NCBI GenBank assembly: GCA_028714455.1
Contig: JAQTMG010000001.1
Span: 568-64,567, forward strand
Direction: 5' to 3'
Source of the DNA: Patescibacteria group bacterium
Lineage (GTDB): Bacteria; Patescibacteriota; Patescibacteriia; CAIXNZ01
DNA length: 64,000 nt
The translations under genes and the position numbers were made by a program. Each line of letters begins with the position of its first letter. Within the stretch, counting starts at the first letter, position 1. Shown piece by piece: positions 25,730 to 61,214 of the stretch. Below the pieces are notes generated by a model. That model was not told where the DNA came from and made no database searches. It saw nothing but the letters and a program-made list of their open reading frames with translations.

Positions 25730-25758
25730 TTGACGTGTTTCTATTAATTTGTTTAAAT
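25730..25758 (+). promoter_or_regulatory. promoter TTGACG-N17-TTAAAT for ncRNA candidate
   Basis: Exact 17-nt spacer; no ORF downstream. Confidence 0.45.
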
Positions 25759-25764
25759 GCGAAC

Positions 25765-25987
25765 AAGCGTAGAAACAGTACGGCGACTCGTGCCCATCTA
25801 AACACGAGGAAAGGGTTCGACTCCCTTTGACTGGCTTTACAAGGAGCTTTTATCTGCCGAGAATAGTTGGGAGGCAATGAATCCCGGTTTTCGGACTGGG
25901 TGGAGCCGAATCTGGAATACCAACCGGATAAAAGACCTTGGCAAGTTCTGCGCTAGGGGGAGAGTGCCACAACCTCTCCCTTTTTTC
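25765..25987 (+). ncRNA. candidate ~220-nt structured ncRNA (identity unresolved; short RNase P / tmRNA-like motifs)
   Basis: 630-bp gap without ORFs; promoter upstream; strong terminator GGGGAGAG-N9-CTCTCCC plus T6 at 25957-25987; hairpin GTTTCTA...TAGAAAC; motifs CGAGGAAAGGGTTCGACTCCC (cf. RNase P CR-I GAGGAAAG; tRNA-like T-arm) and GAATCCCGGTTTTCGG (cf. RNase P P4 3' strand GAACCCGGCTTATCGG). Confidence 0.4.
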
Positions 25988-26156: not shown

Positions 26157-27101
26157 ATGGAAAAATCAAAGTTACAAAATTTAATCCGCGAGTTTCTCGA
26201 ATATCTCGAGATCGAAAAAGGCCGTTCCCGGATGACCATCAGAAATTATGAATTTTATTTACTGCGTTTTTTAACTTGGTCAAATTTTAAAAATCCAGAA
26301 CAAATCACCAGCGACACGGTGCGCAATTATCGGCTCTGGTTAAATCGCCAGAAAGATTCGACTGGACAATTTTTAAAGAAAAATACGCAAAACTATCACT
26401 TAATCGCCTTGCGCGCCTTTTTAAAATATCTGGCTAAGCGCGATATTAAGACTTTGCCGCCGGAAAAAATTGAATTAGCCAAAATGCCAGACCGCCAGAT
26501 TGAATTTTTAGAAGGTTTTGATTTGGAAAACTTTATGGAAGCGCCAATGAAAGTTGAAGAACCGGAAATAATAAGATTGCGTGACAAATCAATTTTAGAA
26601 ACCTTGTTTTCAACCGGACTTCGTGTGTCAGAACTTTCCAATTTAAAAAAAGAGGTTGTTAATTTAAATAAAGATGAATTCACGGTCCGCGGCAAGGGTT
26701 CAAAGCTGCGCGTTGTTTTTCTTTCCAACCAAGCTAAATATTGGCTGAAAAAATATCTGGAAGCGCGAAAAGACATGTCGCAATTTCTATTTACCAATCA
26801 CGACAAAGCCGGTAACAAAAGAAATAAAAAGGGTGATGACAAACCTTTGACGCCGCGCAGTATTCAAAGAATCGTGGAAAAATATGCCAAGGTCGCGGGC
26901 ATCACCAAAAAAATCACGCCCCATGTCCTGCGACATTCTTTTGCCACTGATTTATTAATCAACGGCGCGGATATTCGTTCTGTCCAATCAATGCTGGGCC
27001 ATTCCAGCATCACCACGACTCAAATTTATACGCACATTACAGACAGGCAACTACGCGAAGTGTATAAAAATTTTCACGGCAAGAGAAGAAGAAAGGAATA
27101 A
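26157..27101 (+). CDS. xerC: tyrosine recombinase XerC/XerD family
   Basis: N-terminal core-binding domain; C-terminal RHSFATDLLINGADIRSVQSMLGHSSITTTQIYTHI with catalytic Y. Confidence 0.85.
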   Translation: MEKSKLQNLIREFLEYLEIEKGRSRMTIRNYEFYLLRFLTWSNFKNPEQITSDTVRNYRLWLNRQKDSTGQFLKKNTQNYHLIALRAFLKYLAKRDIKTLPPEKIELAKMPDRQIEFLEGFDLENFMEAPMKVEEPEIIRLRDKSILETLFSTGLRVSELSNLKKEVVNLNKDEFTVRGKGSKLRVVFLSNQAKYWLKKYLEARKDMSQFLFTNHDKAGNKRNKKGDDKPLTPRSIQRIVEKYAKVAGITKKITPHVLRHSFATDLLINGADIRSVQSMLGHSSITTTQIYTHITDRQLREVYKNFHGKRRRKE

Positions 27102-27207: not shown

Positions 27208-27456
27208 TTACTTGCGAATGGCCAGGAACCGCCAACTGCCAAGCCACTTACTGTCAACATTGTTCCAGTAGAGGTTGAGCTTGCGCTTGCCATCATTGAA
27301 GACCAGGCACGGACAGTTACGATTGCCGTTGTCATTGACCCAGACCGAGCCGAGATTATACAGAATACCGCCAAAGCCACTGCCCATTGAGTACTCTCTG
27401 GACTGTATTTTATGCGGGAGCATCCTCCCTTGATATTCTGTACCAAGTATTTTCAT
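27208..27456 (-). CDS. short paralog (83 aa; possible pseudogene/remnant) of the C-terminal Cys/Trp-rich domain, ...WRFLAIRK
   Basis: GSVWVNDNGNRNCPCLVFNDGKRKLNLYWNNVDSKWLGSWRFLAIRK aligns with C-terminus of 27682..28296; GC-rich; own extended -10 promoter and ~150-nt leader. Confidence 0.45.
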   Translation of the reverse strand: MKILGTEYQGRMLPHKIQSREYSMGSGFGGILYNLGSVWVNDNGNRNCPCLVFNDGKRKLNLYWNNVDSKWLGSWRFLAIRK

Positions 27457-27681: not shown

Positions 27682-28296
27682 CTACTTGCGGACGGCCAAG
27701 AAACGGCAACAGGCACCCCAATGACCGTCACCACCGAACCAATAGAGGAAGAGCTTGCGCTCGCCATCAGTGAAGTTCAGGTACGGACAGCTACGATTGC
27801 CGAAGGCATCGACCCAGACCGAGCCGAGAGCGACGATCGGAAACTCCCGTTGAACATCCGGGTTGGCCGCTCCAAAGGCGAGCAGGTGTTCAATGCTAGC
27901 CGGCTTAAGACCCAGACCGTCAAGATGCGCCAGCGCTTCTTTGGTCGTAGCGTCTTTGTTGAGATGAACCAGAACCAATTCGGCTTCTTGCTGACCGACG
28001 CCCTGGACAGGAAAGTGCTTGTCGCTGATGTCGTCATTGACCCAGGCATATTTGCCGAGCTTGATCATCTCGGTGAGCGTCTTGCCGTAGTCCACGACCA
28101 CTCTGTAGGTGTCGCTGGCTTTTTGCCGGCCGAACATGATCAGTTCGGCAACCTGCTTGACCAACTTGCTGTCAGTGAGCAGGCGGTGCAGATCGTCGTC
28201 GCCGCCGCCCAATTCCAGGACGGCATTTGTGATCGCTTGCATTATGGACCACATTTTGCCGGCGGCCTTCAAAAACTCGCTTTTCTTTCTTGCCAT
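27682..28296 (-). CDS. hypothetical protein (204 aa) with C-terminal Cys/Trp-rich domain ...HWGACCRFLAVRK, GC-rich
   Basis: Strong SD aaaggaggatttgacaATG; the mirror-image plus-strand ORF 27634..28323 lacks ATG/SD and is rejected. Confidence 0.6.
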   Translation of the reverse strand: MARKKSEFLKAAGKMWSIMQAITNAVLELGGGDDDLHRLLTDSKLVKQVAELIMFGRQKASDTYRVVVDYGKTLTEMIKLGKYAWVNDDISDKHFPVQGVGQQEAELVLVHLNKDATTKEALAHLDGLGLKPASIEHLLAFGAANPDVQREFPIVALGSVWVDAFGNRSCPYLNFTDGERKLFLYWFGGDGHWGACCRFLAVRK

Positions 28297-28567: not shown

Positions 28568-28650
28568 TTAAATAAAACATTCTAAAATTGTTCCGAAGGG
28601 ATGCCTTTGGCATAAATTGTAAATTGAGAATTGTAAATTGTTTCAGACTC

Positions 28651-28729
28651 CGTAGTTTCCGCCAGAGGCGGACCACGAATCGAGCTTTGCTCTGGTTCGT
28701 GGCAATGGATATCAAAAAATTAACACCTG
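28651..28729 (+). repeat. tRNA-Arg-associated leader element, copy A (identical to copy B at 60670-60752)
   Basis: CCGTAGTT + TCCGCCAGAGGCGGA hairpin + CCACGAA-N16-TTCGTGG hairpin + CAATGGATA (tRNA D-loop sequence) + TCAAAAAATTAACACCT, directly abutting tRNA-Arg 5' end. Confidence 0.7.
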
Positions 28730-28801
28730 TCCTCGTAGTTCAATGGATAGAACAAGAGCCTTCTAAGCTCTGGATTGGGGTTCGATTCCTCACGGGGACA
28801 T
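28730..28801 (+). tRNA. tRNA-Arg (anticodon UCU), no encoded CCA
   Basis: Acceptor GTCCTCG/CGGGGAC, D-arm GTTC-AATGGATA-GAAC, anticodon arm AGAGC-CTTCTAA-GCTCT, T-arm TGGGG-TTCGATT-CCTCA. Confidence 0.85.
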
Positions 28802-28906
28802 CAGTGGTTCTCGGCCAAAGGCTGATCCGCCTCTGGCGGAGATTCCTGGCGGGGTCATAAGGAGATTCGAGTTTCGTGCAAGAGCAAGAGAAATAAAAAT
28901 AAAAAT

Positions 28907-29251
28907 ATGTTTGATTTTGAAAAACTTGAAGTTTATAAAAAAGCCAAAAATATAAATGTTGAAATTTCGGAATTTTTAAAATCTGCAAATGTAGATATTT
29001 TCCTGAATAATCAGTTGAAAAGAGCTTCGTTAAGCATATTATTGAATATTGCGGAAGGTAGCGGTAGATCAACAAAAAGAGATAAAAGAAATTTTTTTGT
29101 CATTGCTCGCGGTTCGGTCTTTGAGTGCACTTCAATTTTTGATCTATTATTCACAGAGAAAGAAATTGAAATTGAAAAATATAATTATTTTTACAATCAG
29201 CTTGAAGAGATTTCAAAAATGCTATACGGTCTAATCAAAACTCATGAATAA
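28907..29251 (+). CDS. four-helix-bundle protein (23S rRNA intervening-sequence / Avd-like family)
   Basis: 114 aa; KLEVYKKA...LKRASLSILLNIAEGSGRSTKRDKRNFFVIARGSVFECTSIFDLL pattern of TIGR02436-type proteins; flanked by inverted GCAAGAG-rich repeats (28883-28895 / 29256-29280). Confidence 0.75.
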   Translation: MFDFEKLEVYKKAKNINVEISEFLKSANVDIFLNNQLKRASLSILLNIAEGSGRSTKRDKRNFFVIARGSVFECTSIFDLLFTEKEIEIEKYNYFYNQLEEISKMLYGLIKTHE

Positions 29252-29288
29252 ACTCTTGCTCGTATCTCTCGTCTCTTGCTGATATCAT

Positions 29289-43628: not shown

Positions 43629-43995
43629 GAAAAGTCCTCCTTTACTTTGTTGATGTTAATATATTGAAATTAATTCGATAAGTCAAGCTTGACTTTTGTT
43701 ATATTTTAGCTTATTATAATAGTAATCCCGAAAGGGATTTTGTTTTTTGAGAATAGGTATTAGGTAATAGTTATTAGGAAATGGAATAAATTTCTTATCG
43801 CCAATACCTATTGCCAAATACCCAATATCCAGCACACCGCCTTCGTCCCGAACTATATCTCGCTTTGCTCAATAAGTTCGGGATAAATCTAATGGTTAGC
43901 CATAGTCCGCCGAAGCACGAAGTGCGAAGGCGGAGACACCGCGCTTTTCCGCCAGAGGCGGACCCGCCTACGGCGGGCAATGCGGTTAAATAAAT

Positions 43996-44250
43996 ATGTA
44001 TTATTTATATATTTTAAAAAGTTTAAAAGACGAAGGATATTATATTGGAATTACAGATAGCACCCTAGATCGACTCAAGGAACATAATCAGGGCAAGGTA
44101 AGATCGACAAAAAGTCGCAGACCATTTATCCTAAAATATTCTGAAAATTATAATACAAAAACTGAAGCAAGAGAAAGAGAGATTCAGCTGAAAAGAAACT
44201 GCAAAATCCGCAAAGAACTTTTACTAAAACTGAAATTTAGTGTTAAATAA
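43996..44250 (+). CDS. GIY-YIG nuclease family protein (84 aa)
   Basis: MYYLYILKSLKDEGYYIGITDSTLDRLKEHNQG — GIY-YIG motif. Confidence 0.8.
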   Translation: MYYLYILKSLKDEGYYIGITDSTLDRLKEHNQGKVRSTKSRRPFILKYSENYNTKTEAREREIQLKRNCKIRKELLLKLKFSVK

Positions 44251-44257
44251 ATATCAC

Positions 44258-44329
44258 GCCGCCATCGTCTAATGGTTAGGACACCGCGCTTTCAATGCGG
44301 TAATCGGGGTTCGATTCCCCGTGGCGGTA
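44258..44329 (+). tRNA. tRNA-Glu (anticodon UUC), no CCA
   Basis: Acceptor GCCGCCA/TGGCGGT (G1.U72), D-arm GTCT-AATGGTTA-GGAC, anticodon arm CCGCG-CTTTCAA-TGCGG, T-arm CGGGG-TTCGATT-CCCCG. Confidence 0.8.
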
Positions 44330-44578
44330 CTTGTCCACAGTTGTCATTCTTTCAGTTGAATTTTTCCCCCGAAAAATTCTAACATCATTTGCCAGGCAGT
44401 ACTATTAAAAACCCCGCGACTATCTCGCGGGTTTTTTATTCTTGACAAAATTAAAAAATTTTGTTAAAATAATCTATCGTTCATTGATAAAAAAGACTGT
44501 TTAAACAGTTTTAATAAATATAAATAAAAGATTTTGTGATGGGTGCCAAAACGCATTCCTAGCCATAAGGAGGAACTG

Positions 44579-49100: not shown

Positions 49101-49133
49101 GGCCACTTAGCCAAGCAGTAAGGCAAGGATCTG
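49101..49133 (+). pseudogene. degenerate 5'-half copy of tRNA-Cys
   Basis: GGCCACTTAGCCAAGCAGTAAGGCAAGGATCTG vs genuine GGCCTGATAGCCAAGTGGTAAGGCGAGGGTCTG 20 nt downstream. Confidence 0.5.
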
Positions 49134-60548: not shown

Positions 60549-60600
60549 GAGGGCCAAGAAATATATAGCCCTCGGGCAGATACAAGTTTATGTATAATTA
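60549..60600. repeat. ~50-bp repeat unit (GGCCAAGA...GGGCAGATACAAGTTTATGTATAATT), copy 1
   Basis: Paralogous to 60852-60890 and 60897-60935; inverted copies at 60655-60676 and 60990-61008. Confidence 0.6.
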
Positions 60601-60669
60601 GCAATAATCGTATTTAACGTTAAATCGATAAGTGCGATTATAATTCAGGCCTTACGCAGACTTGTATCT

Positions 60670-60752
60670 GCCCTCGTAGTTTCCGCCAGAGGCGGACCAC
60701 GAATCGAGCTTTGCTCTGGTTCGTGGCAATGGATATCAAAAAATTAACACCT
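60670..60752 (+). repeat. tRNA-Arg-associated leader element, copy B (100% identical to copy A core)
   Basis: GCCCTCGTAGTT (tRNA nt 1-12) + 45-nt double hairpin + CAATGGATA (D-loop) + TCAAAAAATTAACACCT, then the complete tRNA. Confidence 0.7.
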
Positions 60753-60824
60753 GCCCTCGTAGTTCAATGGATAGAACAAGGGACTCCTAAGCCTTAGATG
60801 GTGGTTCGATTCCTCCCGAGGGCA
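60753..60824 (+). tRNA. tRNA-Arg (anticodon CCU), no CCA; two stem mismatches
   Basis: Acceptor GCCCTCG/CGAGGGC perfect; D-arm identical to tRNA-Arg(UCU); anticodon loop CTCCTAA; A31.G39 and T51.T63 mismatches. Confidence 0.6.
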
Positions 60825-60851
60825 TTAAATTGTGTATAATTGGCCAAGATA

Positions 60852-60935
60852 AAAAAGGGGCCAGCCCAGATACAAGTTTGTGTGTAGGCCTAAGAAAATG
60901 GGCCTGCCCCGATAAAAGTTTATGTGAAAAATAGT
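60852..60935. repeat. repeat units 2 and 3 (..CCCAGATACAAGTTTGTGTGTAGG.. / ..CCCCGATAAAAGTTTATGTG..)
   Basis: Direct repeats after tRNA-Arg; unit 3 is inverted partner of the sequence abutting tRNA-Ala. Confidence 0.55.
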
Positions 60936-61075: not shown

Positions 61076-61140
61076 AAGCGAAATTAACATAAAATTGCTC
61101 AAAGTATAAACGGGCCTGCCCGCCAAAGCTTTGCGAAGGC

Positions 61141-61214
61141 GGGCAATTAGCTCAGCTGGTTAGAGCGTACGATTCACATTCGTAAGGTCACTGGTTCAAT
61201 TCCAGTATTGCCCA
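61141..61214 (+). tRNA. tRNA-Val (anticodon CAC), no CCA
   Basis: Acceptor GGGCAAT/ATTGCCC; anticodon arm TACGA-TTCACAT-TCGTA; T-arm ACTGG-TTCAATT-CCAGT. Confidence 0.8.

Follow-up and report, generated by a model that had tools for sequence, protein, structure and literature searches.

The 14-mer CCGCCAGAGGCGGA is the core of a module in a miniature, polar, DNA-level double-hairpin insertion element. Copies of the hairpin favour the loops of pre-existing hairpins, and the one at 43949 belongs to a conserved composite cassette made of tRNA-Glu sequences and a GIY-YIG nuclease gene. The window, the whole 64-kb stretch of DNA that was analysed, contains four exact matches to the 14-mer, against about 8e-5 expected from its base composition.

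Hairpins in the window

The exact matches are located at 28659-28672, 43949-43962 and 60683-60696 on the forward strand and at 28826-28839 on the reverse strand. The number of matches is still four when up to two mismatches are allowed, compared to 0.17 expected from shuffles of the window. A longer 17-mer, TTCCGCCAGAGGCGGAC, starts at 28657, 43947 and 60681. The recurrence of the motif beside tRNA genes, first noticed in a sequence-only reading of this DNA, is therefore real; the coordinates given there were 1-2 nt off, and the GC content of the window is 40.8% rather than about 37%. The same reading counted four separate occurrences. A single duplicated block of 164 nt (28638-28801 and 60662-60825) accounts for the two tRNA-Arg copies, however, so that there are three independent contexts.

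The motif forms the core of a 15-nt hairpin, TCCGCC-AGA-GGCGGA, with a perfect stem of 6 bp. Related hairpins are found at 28811, 43906, 43963 and 61117. All eight family hairpins in the window have a tRNA gene within 352 nt, and the share of the window within 320 nt of a tRNA gene is 7.2%. Each of the eight is either located in the D, anticodon or T loop of a dead partial tRNA-gene copy or abuts tRNA-Val. The dead copies with family hairpins adjoin intact tRNA-Arg (two genes) and tRNA-Glu. What had been described as leaders of the tRNA-Arg and GIY-YIG genes are thus incomplete duplicates of the tRNA genes next to them, interrupted within a loop by the hairpin.

At the first tRNA-Arg locus, positions 1-12 of an outer dead tRNA-Arg copy (GACTCCGTAGTT, 28646-28657; features from here on are given on the forward strand) are followed by the motif hairpin (28658-28672), which is inserted in the D loop between positions 12 and 13 (GTT/CAA). 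The intact tRNA-Arg reads GTAGTTCAATGG at this point, uninterrupted. A second hairpin of 30 nt, from another family (CCACGAATCGAGCTTTGCTCTGGTTCGTGG, 28673-28702), is identical to 60697-60726. The dead copy then resumes (CAATGGATA, positions 13-21) and leads through a 17-nt spacer (together 28703-28728) to the intact tRNA-Arg(UCU) at 28728-28802, which was found by ARAGORN and scores 64.7 bits with Rfam. The 3' piece of the outer dead copy, GGTTC[..]GATTCCTGGCGGGGTCA, lies at 28806-28857. Its T loop holds two hairpins, a degenerate one (TCGGCCAAAGGCTGA, 28811-28825) and the motif in reverse (28826-28840).

At the second locus, a dead 5' copy of tRNA-Arg(CCU) (60670-60752) consists, in this order, of GCCCTCGTAGTT, the motif hairpin (60682-60696), the 30-nt hairpin (60697-60726), CAATGGATA and the 17-nt spacer. 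It is 100% identical to 28650-28728, despite the differing intact tRNAs. The intact tRNA-Arg(CCU) (60752-60825) is recognized by both the gene finder and Rfam.

The acceptor strand GACTCCG of the outer dead copy pairs with CGGGGTC at 28851-28857, and its 2:71 pair shows a compensatory change relative to the inner tRNA-Arg (GTCCTCG/CGGGGAC). In the predicted fold, 28646-28672 and the 3' piece, with their upstream and reversed downstream hairpins and the outer acceptor strands, form a helix of about 30 bp that encloses tRNA-Arg(UCU) (MFE -104 kcal/mol, z = -7.2). Such a helix would suit a functional RNA element, namely an RNase III-type processing site or a structure that stabilises the 5' end of pre-tRNA and GIY-YIG transcripts, maintained by selection on RNA structure. 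The tRNA-Pro gene at locus L201, enclosed by a 15-bp inverted repeat, would fit as well. However, the enclosing helix is predicted at one of the three window loci, with none at tRNA-Glu or tRNA-Arg(CCU), and the RNase III-type processing suggested earlier is only a prediction, for the tRNA-Arg(UCU) locus alone. With the further evidence presented below, we consider a function in RNA to be an unlikely alternative.

A four-helix-bundle '23S rRNA IVS protein' gene (PF05635, 1.1e-25; TIGR02436) is located at 28907-29251, inside an inverted repeat (28878-28890 / 29253-29279). A long flanking duplex is predicted around this gene, as it is around tRNA-Arg(UCU). PF05635 proteins are near hairpins at 2 of the 120 loci listed, and the proposed link between the hairpin and this protein is weak. 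The related hairpin at 61117-61145, TGCCCGCC-(13 nt)-GGCGGGCA, overlaps the first 5 nt of tRNA-Val with its 3' arm.

The dead 5' tRNA-Cys copy at 49101-49133 has no hairpin, which shows that partial tRNA copies exist independently of hairpins. In the hairpin-bearing contigs examined, partial copies adjoin 33 of 98 tRNA genes, and they are found beside 5 of 47 tRNAs that are distant from family hairpins. Partial copies without family hairpins would be expected if the hairpins were neutral debris, gathered at the word GTT/CRA by unconstrained dead tRNA copies that were left by integrases, recombination with incoming DNA or decayed cassettes. GTTCRA is indeed present in tRNA T loops, and the insertions are never in intact genes, as purifying selection would predict. 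On the other hand, the loops of the five copies without family hairpins hold hairpins of other families, and the window offers 1157 TTTVA sites, yet all eight family hairpins are confined to tRNA-derived DNA. Taken with the conservation of the tRNA-Glu locus (see below), these observations make an origin as debris very improbable.

Architecture and insertion of the element

Module 1 has the consensus TCCGCC-NNA-GGCGGA (15 nt). Module 2, CCNGCC-TNN-GGCNGG, usually follows directly, giving a 30-nt double hairpin. This family is widespread among uncultivated bacteria of many phyla, with at least 120 motif-bearing loci in genomes and at least 120 in metagenomes, all selected by the presence of the hairpin and nearly all from metagenome assemblies. 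The motif therefore represents a true repeat family. A chance recurrence is at odds with the count in the window. An assembly artefact might be suspected from the source of the data, but many laboratories and many assemblers have produced assemblies that contain the family, among them the closed chromosomes OY970292.1 and CP070655.1, and the cassette recurs in independent samples; we give almost no credence to either explanation.

The stem of hairpin 2 covaries, as the sequence-only reading had proposed to check. Its free pair is complementary in 126 of the 131 copies listed, switching between A-T (62) and C-G (62). A perfect 6-3-6 hairpin directly follows 30 of the 122 unconstrained motif matches listed, compared to none of 244 controls. 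The complementarity is Watson-Crick on either strand and G-U pairs are in no excess, which argues against an RNA element, as does the occurrence of copies in either orientation relative to transcription. With the Rfam covariance models, tRNAs alone pass the gathering threshold in the window, and nothing credible is found over the hairpin regions at E <= 1; the lack of an Rfam family also counts against a structured RNA. Our literature search, which extended to hairpin and tRNA features reported for candidate phyla, found no published description of the double-hairpin element or of the peptides that it encodes.

Proximity of the motif to tRNA genes is enriched about 5-fold in each of two independent samples. 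The earlier view that the motif is confined to tRNA, nuclease and IVS genes is too narrow, as about 95% of the double-hairpin copies listed from metagenomes have no tRNA closer than 50 nt.

The insertions are clean, in multiples of 15 nt and without target-site duplication. Comparison of filled dead copies with intact tRNAs reveals clean insertions of 30 or 45 nt. The junction has TT(T) on the 5' side and VA on the 3' side; among 131 listed copies, position -1 is T in 101, position -2 is T in 106 and position +2 is A in 89. For 11 of the 122 copies listed, the insertion is in a loop closed by an outer stem with 6 bp or more, against an expectation of less than one, and tRNA loops are among the insertion targets in many phyla.

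Several other identities were considered and rejected. A classical MITE does not fit, as target-site duplications are absent when filled sites are compared with intact tRNAs. For an intrinsic terminator the flanks are reversed, the T run being 5' of the hairpin and A being 3', and a terminator scan was negative at the hairpin sites. A phage origin is contradicted by the presence of just 2 matches among 2.9 million viral contigs. The copies are not a motif of the uptake-signal type either, because relative to homologues they are whole 30-nt insertions and not accumulated point mutations.

Many copies are translated. Among the double hairpins listed, 78 of 129 lie within stop-free spans of at least 70 codons, and two reading frames are favoured by 55 of these 78 coding copies. 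The encoded peptides are SAxGGPAxGW or PAxGGSAxGG. In-frame copies are found in RecG, DnaJ and GAPDH, and the 10-residue insert of RecG and GAPDH is missing in solved homologues. The RecG insert is present, variously decayed, in about 11 of 120 RecG proteins of the CPR (Patescibacteria), most of which have no insert. Abundance in coding regions, which the sequence-only reading would have taken as evidence against a positional signal, is thus a misleading measure, as the copies in coding DNA represent the same element, inserted in frame. An RNA-level mini-intron is unlikely because the strong frame bias of the coding copies implies translation, and the hairpin-bearing tRNA copies are truncated anyway. 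In-frame, frame-biased translation also speaks against an RNA processing site or stabiliser.

The element could instead be a REP/REPIN-like or IS200/IS605-derived miniature element, unrelated to the GIY-YIG gene, whose movement on single-stranded DNA depends on an HUH tyrosine transposase (RAYT or TnpA) supplied in trans. Insertion of a hairpin 3' of a short T-rich word, without target duplication, would be expected of such an element, and the preference for loops would correspond to single-stranded targets. In GC-rich contigs, moreover, the double hairpin is at the apex of larger palindromes ending in CCCTAC, the GTAG tag of REPs, and REPs are known within genes, often repair genes. However, the copies in Patescibacteria, including those in the window, have neither a GTAG nor a CGTC tag. 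The ends of IS200/IS605 elements need guide sequences, and 15-30 nt is too short to hold them. A weak search across 1.67 Mb of DNA with hairpins detected a single RAYT-like ORF, and it is a lead only. Mobilisation by such a transposase would also leave the tight and conserved association with the GIY-YIG cassette unaccounted for, and we judge it quite improbable.

The tRNA-Glu/GIY-YIG cassette

The cassette contains positions 1-35 of a tRNA-Glu copy, the double hairpin between positions 35 and 36, positions 36-44, the GIY-YIG gene and the intact tRNA-Glu, in this order. In the window, the dead 5' tRNA-Glu copy (positions 1-44) covers 43836-43986, with hairpin insertions at 43847-43882, 43906-43934 and 43948-43977. 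Of the 46 bases in its tRNA-derived stretches, 44 agree with the intact gene; as few as two substitutions beside three insertion sites would not be expected of neutral debris. The motif hairpin (43948-43962) is inserted in the anticodon loop (CTTT/CAA), and the partner hairpin CCCGCC-TAC-GGCGGG (43963-43977), whose stem covaries across the family, completes the 30-nt double hairpin. The gene at 43996-44250 encodes a stand-alone GIY-YIG nuclease of 84 amino acids in the UPF0213 class (PF01541, 5.8e-14), and it is bounded by a 12-nt direct repeat, TTAAATAAATAT (43986-43997 and 44243-44254). The intact tRNA-Glu(UUC) is located at 44258-44330 (gene finder and Rfam). The UPF0213 structures PDB 1ywl and 1zg2 match the protein at about 4e-7, and the similarity to SLX1 is faint. 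The matches cover the catalytic domain alone, and a separate DNA-binding domain is absent. A search for orthologous empty sites in close relatives yielded none, as the protein was recovered only in two short contigs of the same population and the nearest helicase homologue is 53% identical.

In a sample picked by similarity of the GIY-YIG protein alone, this layout is common to all six tRNA-Glu-linked lineages (62-100% identity). All six have the hairpin between positions 35 and 36, and in each the dead copy matches the local tRNA; the retention of this position is a further argument against debris. Between the window and locus L252, homology begins at the dead copy and stops at the 3' end of the tRNA, and the neighbouring genes are unrelated. 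The double hairpin and its flanks are identical at 51 of 51 positions while the ORF is 84% identical, and two other hairpins show compensatory changes. Complete conservation of the double hairpin between diverged cassettes is difficult to reconcile with debris; together with the compensatory changes, it would also be compatible with an RNA element. Locus L250 carries a tandem pair of cassettes; at L249, between the same flanks, there is a single one.

GIY-YIG is the top protein family near hairpins, at 12 of the 240 loci listed, and the usual separation is 17-94 nt. In at least nine contigs the hairpin is 15-31 nt upstream of the ATG of the GIY-YIG gene, a spacing that an RNA element could explain. 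The double hairpin does not keep one orientation relative to the ORF, as a fixed terminal repeat of the cassette would. Among the homologues examined, the GIY-YIG gene is always beside a tRNA or within an rRNA gene. One homologue is located within a 23S rRNA intervening sequence, which fits the earlier suggestion that these proteins are cargo of small elements in structured-RNA genes, and another, located upstream of tRNA-Gln, lacks both the dead copy and the hairpin. The interpretation proposed from the sequence is upheld in part. Hairpin and GIY-YIG gene are found together in the same place in the tRNA-Glu lineages, but most of the listed hairpin copies have no GIY-YIG gene nearby. No published description of a tRNA/GIY-YIG cassette was found in the literature.

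On balance, we favour a mechanism, deduced from these sequence arrangements, in which the hairpin and the nuclease belong to a homing cassette driven by the nuclease. The cassette would bring along a replacement tRNA segment, and the hairpin would occupy the junction or cleavage site. The GIY-YIG protein would be a free-standing homing-type nuclease, possibly structure-specific, that cuts naive tRNA genes in a loop. Repair of the break would be templated by the invaded allele, with the dead 5' copy serving as the left arm. The cassette would bring a fresh 5' tRNA segment, so that an intact tRNA is rebuilt and an intron would be unnecessary, and the recipient's own 5' part would become the new dead copy. 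A hairpin at the break position of the dead copy would destroy the target and interrupt the direct repeat, and would thereby stabilise the cassette. Solo hairpins could spread by copying into breaks that share short TTT / VA flanks, and the arrangements without an ORF that precede both tRNA-Arg genes may be derivatives of cassettes. Against homing, a DNA-binding domain is missing from the 84-aa protein. The intact tRNA of the invaded allele keeps the presumed target, so that immunity is unaccounted for, as is the identity of the stems across distant phyla.

More tentatively, and with rather more doubt than confidence, the cassette might represent an undescribed class of selfish element in Patescibacteria and other uncultivated bacteria. 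Such an element would combine a minimal, possibly structure-specific GIY-YIG nuclease, self-healing invasion of tRNA loops and a junction-protecting hairpin of 15/30 nt. The hairpin itself would be the smallest known autonomous-looking mobile module, spreading by break repair into hairpin loops and, in frame, into essential proteins across phyla.

If homing by replacement is correct, selfish DNA can colonise tRNAs, the most conserved and least tolerant of genes, without an intron, by means of its own replacement segment. It would account for the partial copies that adjoin roughly one in three tRNA genes of the contigs with hairpins surveyed here, and would point to a 30-nt element as the source of 10-residue inserts in core proteins (RecG, DnaJ, GAPDH) of many lineages. 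The large UPF0213 (YhbQ-like) GIY-YIG family would gain a testable role, and a compact nuclease-plus-target pair would be on offer for study. Such an element would bear on gene calling and tRNA annotation in candidate phyla, as well as on their phylogenetic alignments and protein-family models.

Comparison with known systems

We rate the hairpin and its cassette as a variant of REP-like palindromes and of free-standing homing endonucleases. REP/REPIN sequences with their RAYT proteins are short, GC-rich, dispersed palindromes tagged with GTAG or CGTC, often paired and sometimes in genes, notably repair genes (Di Nocera et al. 2013, PMC3733652). The present hairpins are likewise short, GC-rich, dispersed and often paired, and are sometimes in genes. 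Neither the window copies nor the majority of AT-rich copies bear the GTAG tag, while 7 of 11 palindrome-capping copies in GC-rich contigs have it. At 15 nt, the present modules are half as long as REPs; they have the same stems across many phyla and a defined TT(T)/VA junction, and are tied to tRNA remnants and GIY-YIG genes; no associated RAYT gene was seen in the weak search of 1.67 Mb. Hairpins, the absence of duplication and a T-rich 5' flank would fit an IS200/IS605 origin, but the element is too short for guide sequences, and no TnpA was identified here.

The Rickettsia palindromic elements, said to have been described by Ogata et al. in 2000, are reportedly about 100-150 nt long and found in one genus. 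They too are palindromic selfish DNA, located in frame in conserved protein genes and also in RNA genes. The present element is 30 nt long and occurs in many phyla, and its in-frame insertions in RecG, GAPDH and DnaJ are absent from orthologues.

Mitochondrial double-hairpin elements were reportedly described by Paquin et al. in 2000. Such organellar elements resemble the present one in being small GC-rich palindromes of AT-rich genomes that are mobile, merge and nest, and lie beside endonuclease ORFs and RNA genes without a known transposase. The mitochondrial GC clusters, double-hairpin elements and repetitive hairpin-forming elements are small palindromes of 30-80 nt with putative target duplications (PMC4478555, PMC2800124). 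They are organellar and longer, whereas the element here is bacterial and has no duplication.

SegB of phage T4, a precedent for the proposed homing, is a free-standing GIY-YIG homing endonuclease encoded in a tRNA cluster; its site includes the TpsiC stem-loop motif, and homing co-converts the flanking tRNA genes (PMC2330249). A GIY-YIG gene is beside tRNA genes in both systems. SegB is phage-encoded and has a DNA-binding region, whereas the 84-aa UPF0213 catalytic domain is chromosomal, and its gene is embedded in a partial tandem duplication of the presumed target with a hairpin at the junction. A Seg-like context is evident from the target-adjacent position of the gene, the unrelated flanks of the window and L252 cassettes, and the difference in copy number between L250 and L249.

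Integrative elements that target tRNA genes are kilobases long, encode an integrase and carry a replacement tRNA segment in attP, with the 3' part of the tRNA duplicated. A displaced partial tRNA copy and a rebuilt intact gene are common to both, but the unit here is about 350 nt, its duplication is mainly of the 5' part, and its cassette encodes no integrase. Intervening sequences of rRNA with PF05635 ORFs are excised by RNase III. They also have ORFs flanked by inverted repeats inside structured-RNA genes, and the PF05635 gene in the window is similarly repeat-flanked. Unlike rRNA, tRNA is intolerant of fragmentation, and the cassette in a tRNA gene would therefore bring a duplicated segment instead of relying on RNA excision.

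Hairpins and dead tRNA copies in the window

The GC-rich 14-mer CCGCCAGAGGCGGA is found exactly at 28659, 43949 and 60683 (forward strand) and at 28826 (reverse strand), in agreement with the four occurrences in the sequence-only reading. Base composition predicts ~8e-5 exact copies for the window. Allowing two mismatches gives no additional match (0.17 expected from shuffles). The full unit around the 14-mer is a 15-nt hairpin, TCCGCC-AGA-GGCGGA, and two of the four copies lie in one duplicated 164-nt block. Related hairpins are located at 28811, 43906, 43963 and 61117, and each of the eight family hairpins in the window has a tRNA gene within 352 nt. The source is a metagenome-assembled genome of Patescibacteria, with no close relative in the databases. 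An Rfam search of the window matches only nine tRNAs, and permissive thresholds give no credible match for the hairpin regions.

The same reading placed the motif in the leaders of tRNA-Arg and GIY-YIG genes. The position is correct, but the "leaders" are partial copies of the neighboring tRNA genes (dead copies), and the hairpins of the window are confined to them. Upstream of both tRNA-Arg genes, (G)CCCTCGTAGTT is followed by the motif hairpin, a 30-nt hairpin and CAATGGATA; this unit is tRNA positions 1–21, interrupted by 45 nt at the junction 12|13. Downstream of tRNA-Arg(UCU), GGTTC is followed by a hairpin, the reversed motif and GATTCCTGGCGGGGTCA, corresponding to the T loop and 3′ acceptor strand with a 30-nt insertion. 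The GIY-YIG gene (43996–44250, 84 residues) is preceded by positions 1–44 of tRNA-Glu with three hairpin sites, the motif and CCCGCC-TAC-GGCGGG being inserted in the anticodon loop, between positions 35 and 36. Compared with the intact genes, these insertions are clean, and no target is duplicated.

GACTCCG, the outer 5′ strand at the tRNA-Arg(UCU) locus, is complementary to the outer 3′ strand CGGGGTC, and the 2:71 pair of the outer strands differs from that of the inner tRNA by a compensatory change. The outer strands are therefore the termini of a single older tRNA-Arg gene, which a spacer and the new tRNA now divide.

Upstream of tRNA-Cys, a degenerate dead 5′ copy (49101–49133) lies 20 nt from the intact gene and has no hairpin insertion. 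A four-helix-bundle gene (PF05635, 28907–29251) is located between the dead tRNA-Arg 3′ piece and tRNA-His, bracketed by the inverted repeat GCAAGAGCAAGAG / CTCTTGCTCG...CTCTTGC (28878–29279); by analogy, this unit is like an rRNA intervening sequence transplanted to a tRNA operon spacer. A T-arm-like fragment (GGGTTCGACTCCC, 25740–25830), nearest to tRNA-Gly or the tmRNA 3′ end and not called by ARAGORN or Rfam, precedes a tyrosine integrase gene of the XerC/D type (26157–27101) by ~330 nt. A small element integrated beside the tRNA-Arg locus may have left this fragment as an att remnant. Two minus-strand ORFs without Pfam matches, located between the integrase and tRNA-Arg, contain a 147-nt direct repeat (27209–27355 and 27683–27829, 80% identity), which looks like a partial gene duplication. 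Upstream of both tRNA-Arg(CCU) and tRNA-Ala, the sequence GGCC..(N)..CAGATACAAGTTTRTGT is repeated (60552–60596, 60842–60886 and ~60900–60930). It is a candidate promoter or operator for this tRNA cluster and is not called by a sigma-70 scan.

The hairpin family and its insertion sites

The exact 17-mer is present at 120 or more loci in species-representative genomes (Patescibacteria, Omnitrophota, Planctomycetota, Lentisphaerota, Chloroflexota, Ignavibacteria, Bacteroidota and uncultured Proteobacteria), including two closed chromosomes. The degenerate double-hairpin pattern is found at at least 120 metagenome loci versus 2 viral contigs. In 126 of 131 double hairpins, the second stem's unconstrained pair consists of complementary bases (A-T 62, C-G 62). 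The loops are NNA in the first hairpin and TNN in the second. The left flank is TT(T), with T at −1 in 101 and at −2 in 106, and the right flank is VA, with A at +2 in 89. When the partner is left unconstrained, a perfect 6-3-6 hairpin directly follows the motif in 30 of 122 matches (0 of 244 controls) and precedes it in 1 of 122; the pair is thus polar.

Two features suggest an RNA role for the hairpins: a ~30-bp helix predicted to enclose tRNA-Arg(UCU), and a constant spacing between hairpin and ATG. Against this role, copies occur in both orientations, some are translated, and G-U pairs are not in excess, either in the stems of the 131 double hairpins or in the 122 unconstrained matches. 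Complementarity is preserved on both strands, a sign of selection or origin at the DNA level and not in RNA.

Of 129 hairpin copies, 78 lie in spans of 70 or more codons without a stop, and 55 of these are in the two frames encoding SAxGGPAxGW or PAxGGSAxGG. Inserts are found in RecG (LHGRM[PARGGSASGG]K), GAPDH (M[PARSGSASGG]KKIKIAVNGFGRIGR) and the G/F region of DnaJ (up to three copies), and the inserted residues are absent from solved RecG and GAPDH structures. About 11 of 120 Patescibacteria RecG proteins have the insert, at one common site and with varied decay, while most lack it. On the opposite strand, ATG|AAA start sites read TTT|CAT, the same target as the hairpin junction. Of 122 copies, 11 are in the loop of an enclosing stem of 6 bp or more (<1 expected), and the loop-sited copies include GTAG-tagged REP-like palindromes in GC-rich contigs. 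A RAYT/IS200-type mechanism fits in part, as the hairpin form is suitable and target duplication is lacking as expected, but the copies in the window and in Patescibacteria carry no tag, and no transposase was found apart from one RAYT-like ORF, a lead only, in 1.67 Mb of hairpin-bearing DNA.

Near tRNAs, the hairpins are about five times as frequent as elsewhere (15% versus 3% within 200 nt; 4.7% versus 1.0% within 50 nt in a second comparison). In many phyla, a hairpin near a tRNA nearly always lies within a partial duplicate of that tRNA, and the site is exactly the T loop (GTT|CRA), the anticodon loop or the D loop. Partial copies are found beside 33 of 98 tRNAs examined, 28 of 51 near a family hairpin and 5 of 47 not near one; these five have hairpins of other families in their loops. 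The window contains 1157 TTTVA sites, yet its hairpins are only in tRNA-derived DNA, so the targeting is not accounted for by this short word alone. The conservation of both position and sequence is at odds with pure debris. The hairpins form a family of miniature palindromic insertions that have a defined junction and favor loops.

In a second palindrome family that is also widespread, (G)CCCTTCGAC...GCTCAGGG(C), the loop is in some cases occupied by the double hairpin (loci L003, L004, L035, L103, L141, L148, L152, L153, L213 and L229). Dead tRNA copies carry a further family, CCCAGGGTTTATCCCTGGG, in their T loops (L074, L117). In locus L201 (~1080–1460), a 15-bp inverted repeat encloses an intact tRNA-Pro that lies inside an older tRNA-Pro, between positions 33 and 37 of the latter, and the D and T loops of the older gene carry hairpins; the arrangement reads as a tRNA nested in a dead tRNA.

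The GIY-YIG cassette

The proximity of GIY-YIG genes to the hairpins, pointed out earlier for the window, extends to other genomes. Among clustered ORFs within 1.5 kb of hairpins, the small GIY-YIG protein is the most recurrent family (12 loci, 17–94 nt away in 8); the insertion targets DnaJ and RecG rank below it. Nine or more unrelated contigs, selected for hairpin presence, have a 5′ tRNA copy with the hairpin in its last loop, then the GIY-YIG ORF, then the intact cognate tRNA (Glu, Asn, Ser, Leu, Pro or Ala). The tRNA copy with its hairpin is followed by segments of 6 to 11 nt and 6 to 17 nt, and then by the ATG.

Because these loci were selected for the hairpin, a second sample was collected by protein similarity to the window protein only, and the contigs were compared. 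All six tRNA-Glu lineages in this sample (proteins 62–100% identical) have the cassette layout: positions 1–35 of the local tRNA-Glu, TCCGCC-NNA-GGCGGA, a second hairpin, positions 36 to 43–53, the ORF and the intact tRNA. The junction is exactly TTT(T)|CA in all six, and the stem is constant while the loops vary. The hairpin is a conserved part of this cassette. One homolog lies upstream of tRNA-Gln without a dead copy. Another is encoded downstream of tRNA-Gly, and after it come a hairpin and a tRNA 3′ fragment that begins in the T loop. A further homolog (L261, ~560–1100) is within an intervening sequence of a 23S rRNA gene, in the domain IV region, flanked by the 20-bp inverted repeat CCCCTCACCAATTTTGGGTT / AACCCAAAATTGGTGAGGGG.

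Homology between the window and L252 begins at the dead copy and stops at the 3′ end of the tRNA, and the flanking genes are unrelated. The double hairpin and its flanks are identical (51/51), the ORF is 84% identical, and two other hairpins show compensatory stem changes. In L250 (750–1540), two identical cassettes, each of dead copy, hairpin and ORF, are in tandem upstream of tRNA-Glu, whereas L249, the same locus and flanks from a different sample, has one; this is a copy-number polymorphism. The GIY-YIG protein consists of a catalytic domain alone, belongs to the UPF0213 class and resembles SLX1 only faintly.

In L090 (6985–7567), a tRNA-Asn has a GIY-YIG ORF on each side, the upstream one with a dead 5′ copy carrying nested hairpins in its D loop and the downstream one followed by a dead 3′ piece.

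Proposed mechanism and related systems

We propose that the putative GIY-YIG nuclease cuts naive tRNA genes in a loop. Repair would use the invaded allele as template, with the dead copy as left arm; the sequence copied would comprise hairpin, ORF and a new 5′ segment of the tRNA. What had been the 5′ part of the recipient gene would turn into the next dead copy, which would explain why the dead copy always matches the local tRNA. The hairpin would destroy the target in the dead copy and break up a direct repeat otherwise able to delete the ORF. The identical ORF-less units at two tRNA-Arg genes may be derivatives spread between paralogs with a common D arm, and solo hairpins could be copied into breaks through TTT / VA microhomology. 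T4 SegB, a GIY-YIG homing enzyme recognizing the TpsiC motif of tRNA genes (PMC2330249), is a precedent. The weak points of this mechanism are that the intact tRNA is still a potential target, that hairpin orientation relative to the ORF varies, that most hairpins have no GIY-YIG gene nearby, and that stems identical across phyla are not accounted for.

No account of the motif, the encoded peptides or related descriptions was found in the literature searched, and there is a substantial chance that the tRNA-invading cassette represents a new mechanism. The known kinds nearest to the finding are REP/REPIN elements, Rickettsia palindromic elements, mitochondrial GC clusters and double-hairpin elements, and Seg-type homing endonucleases.
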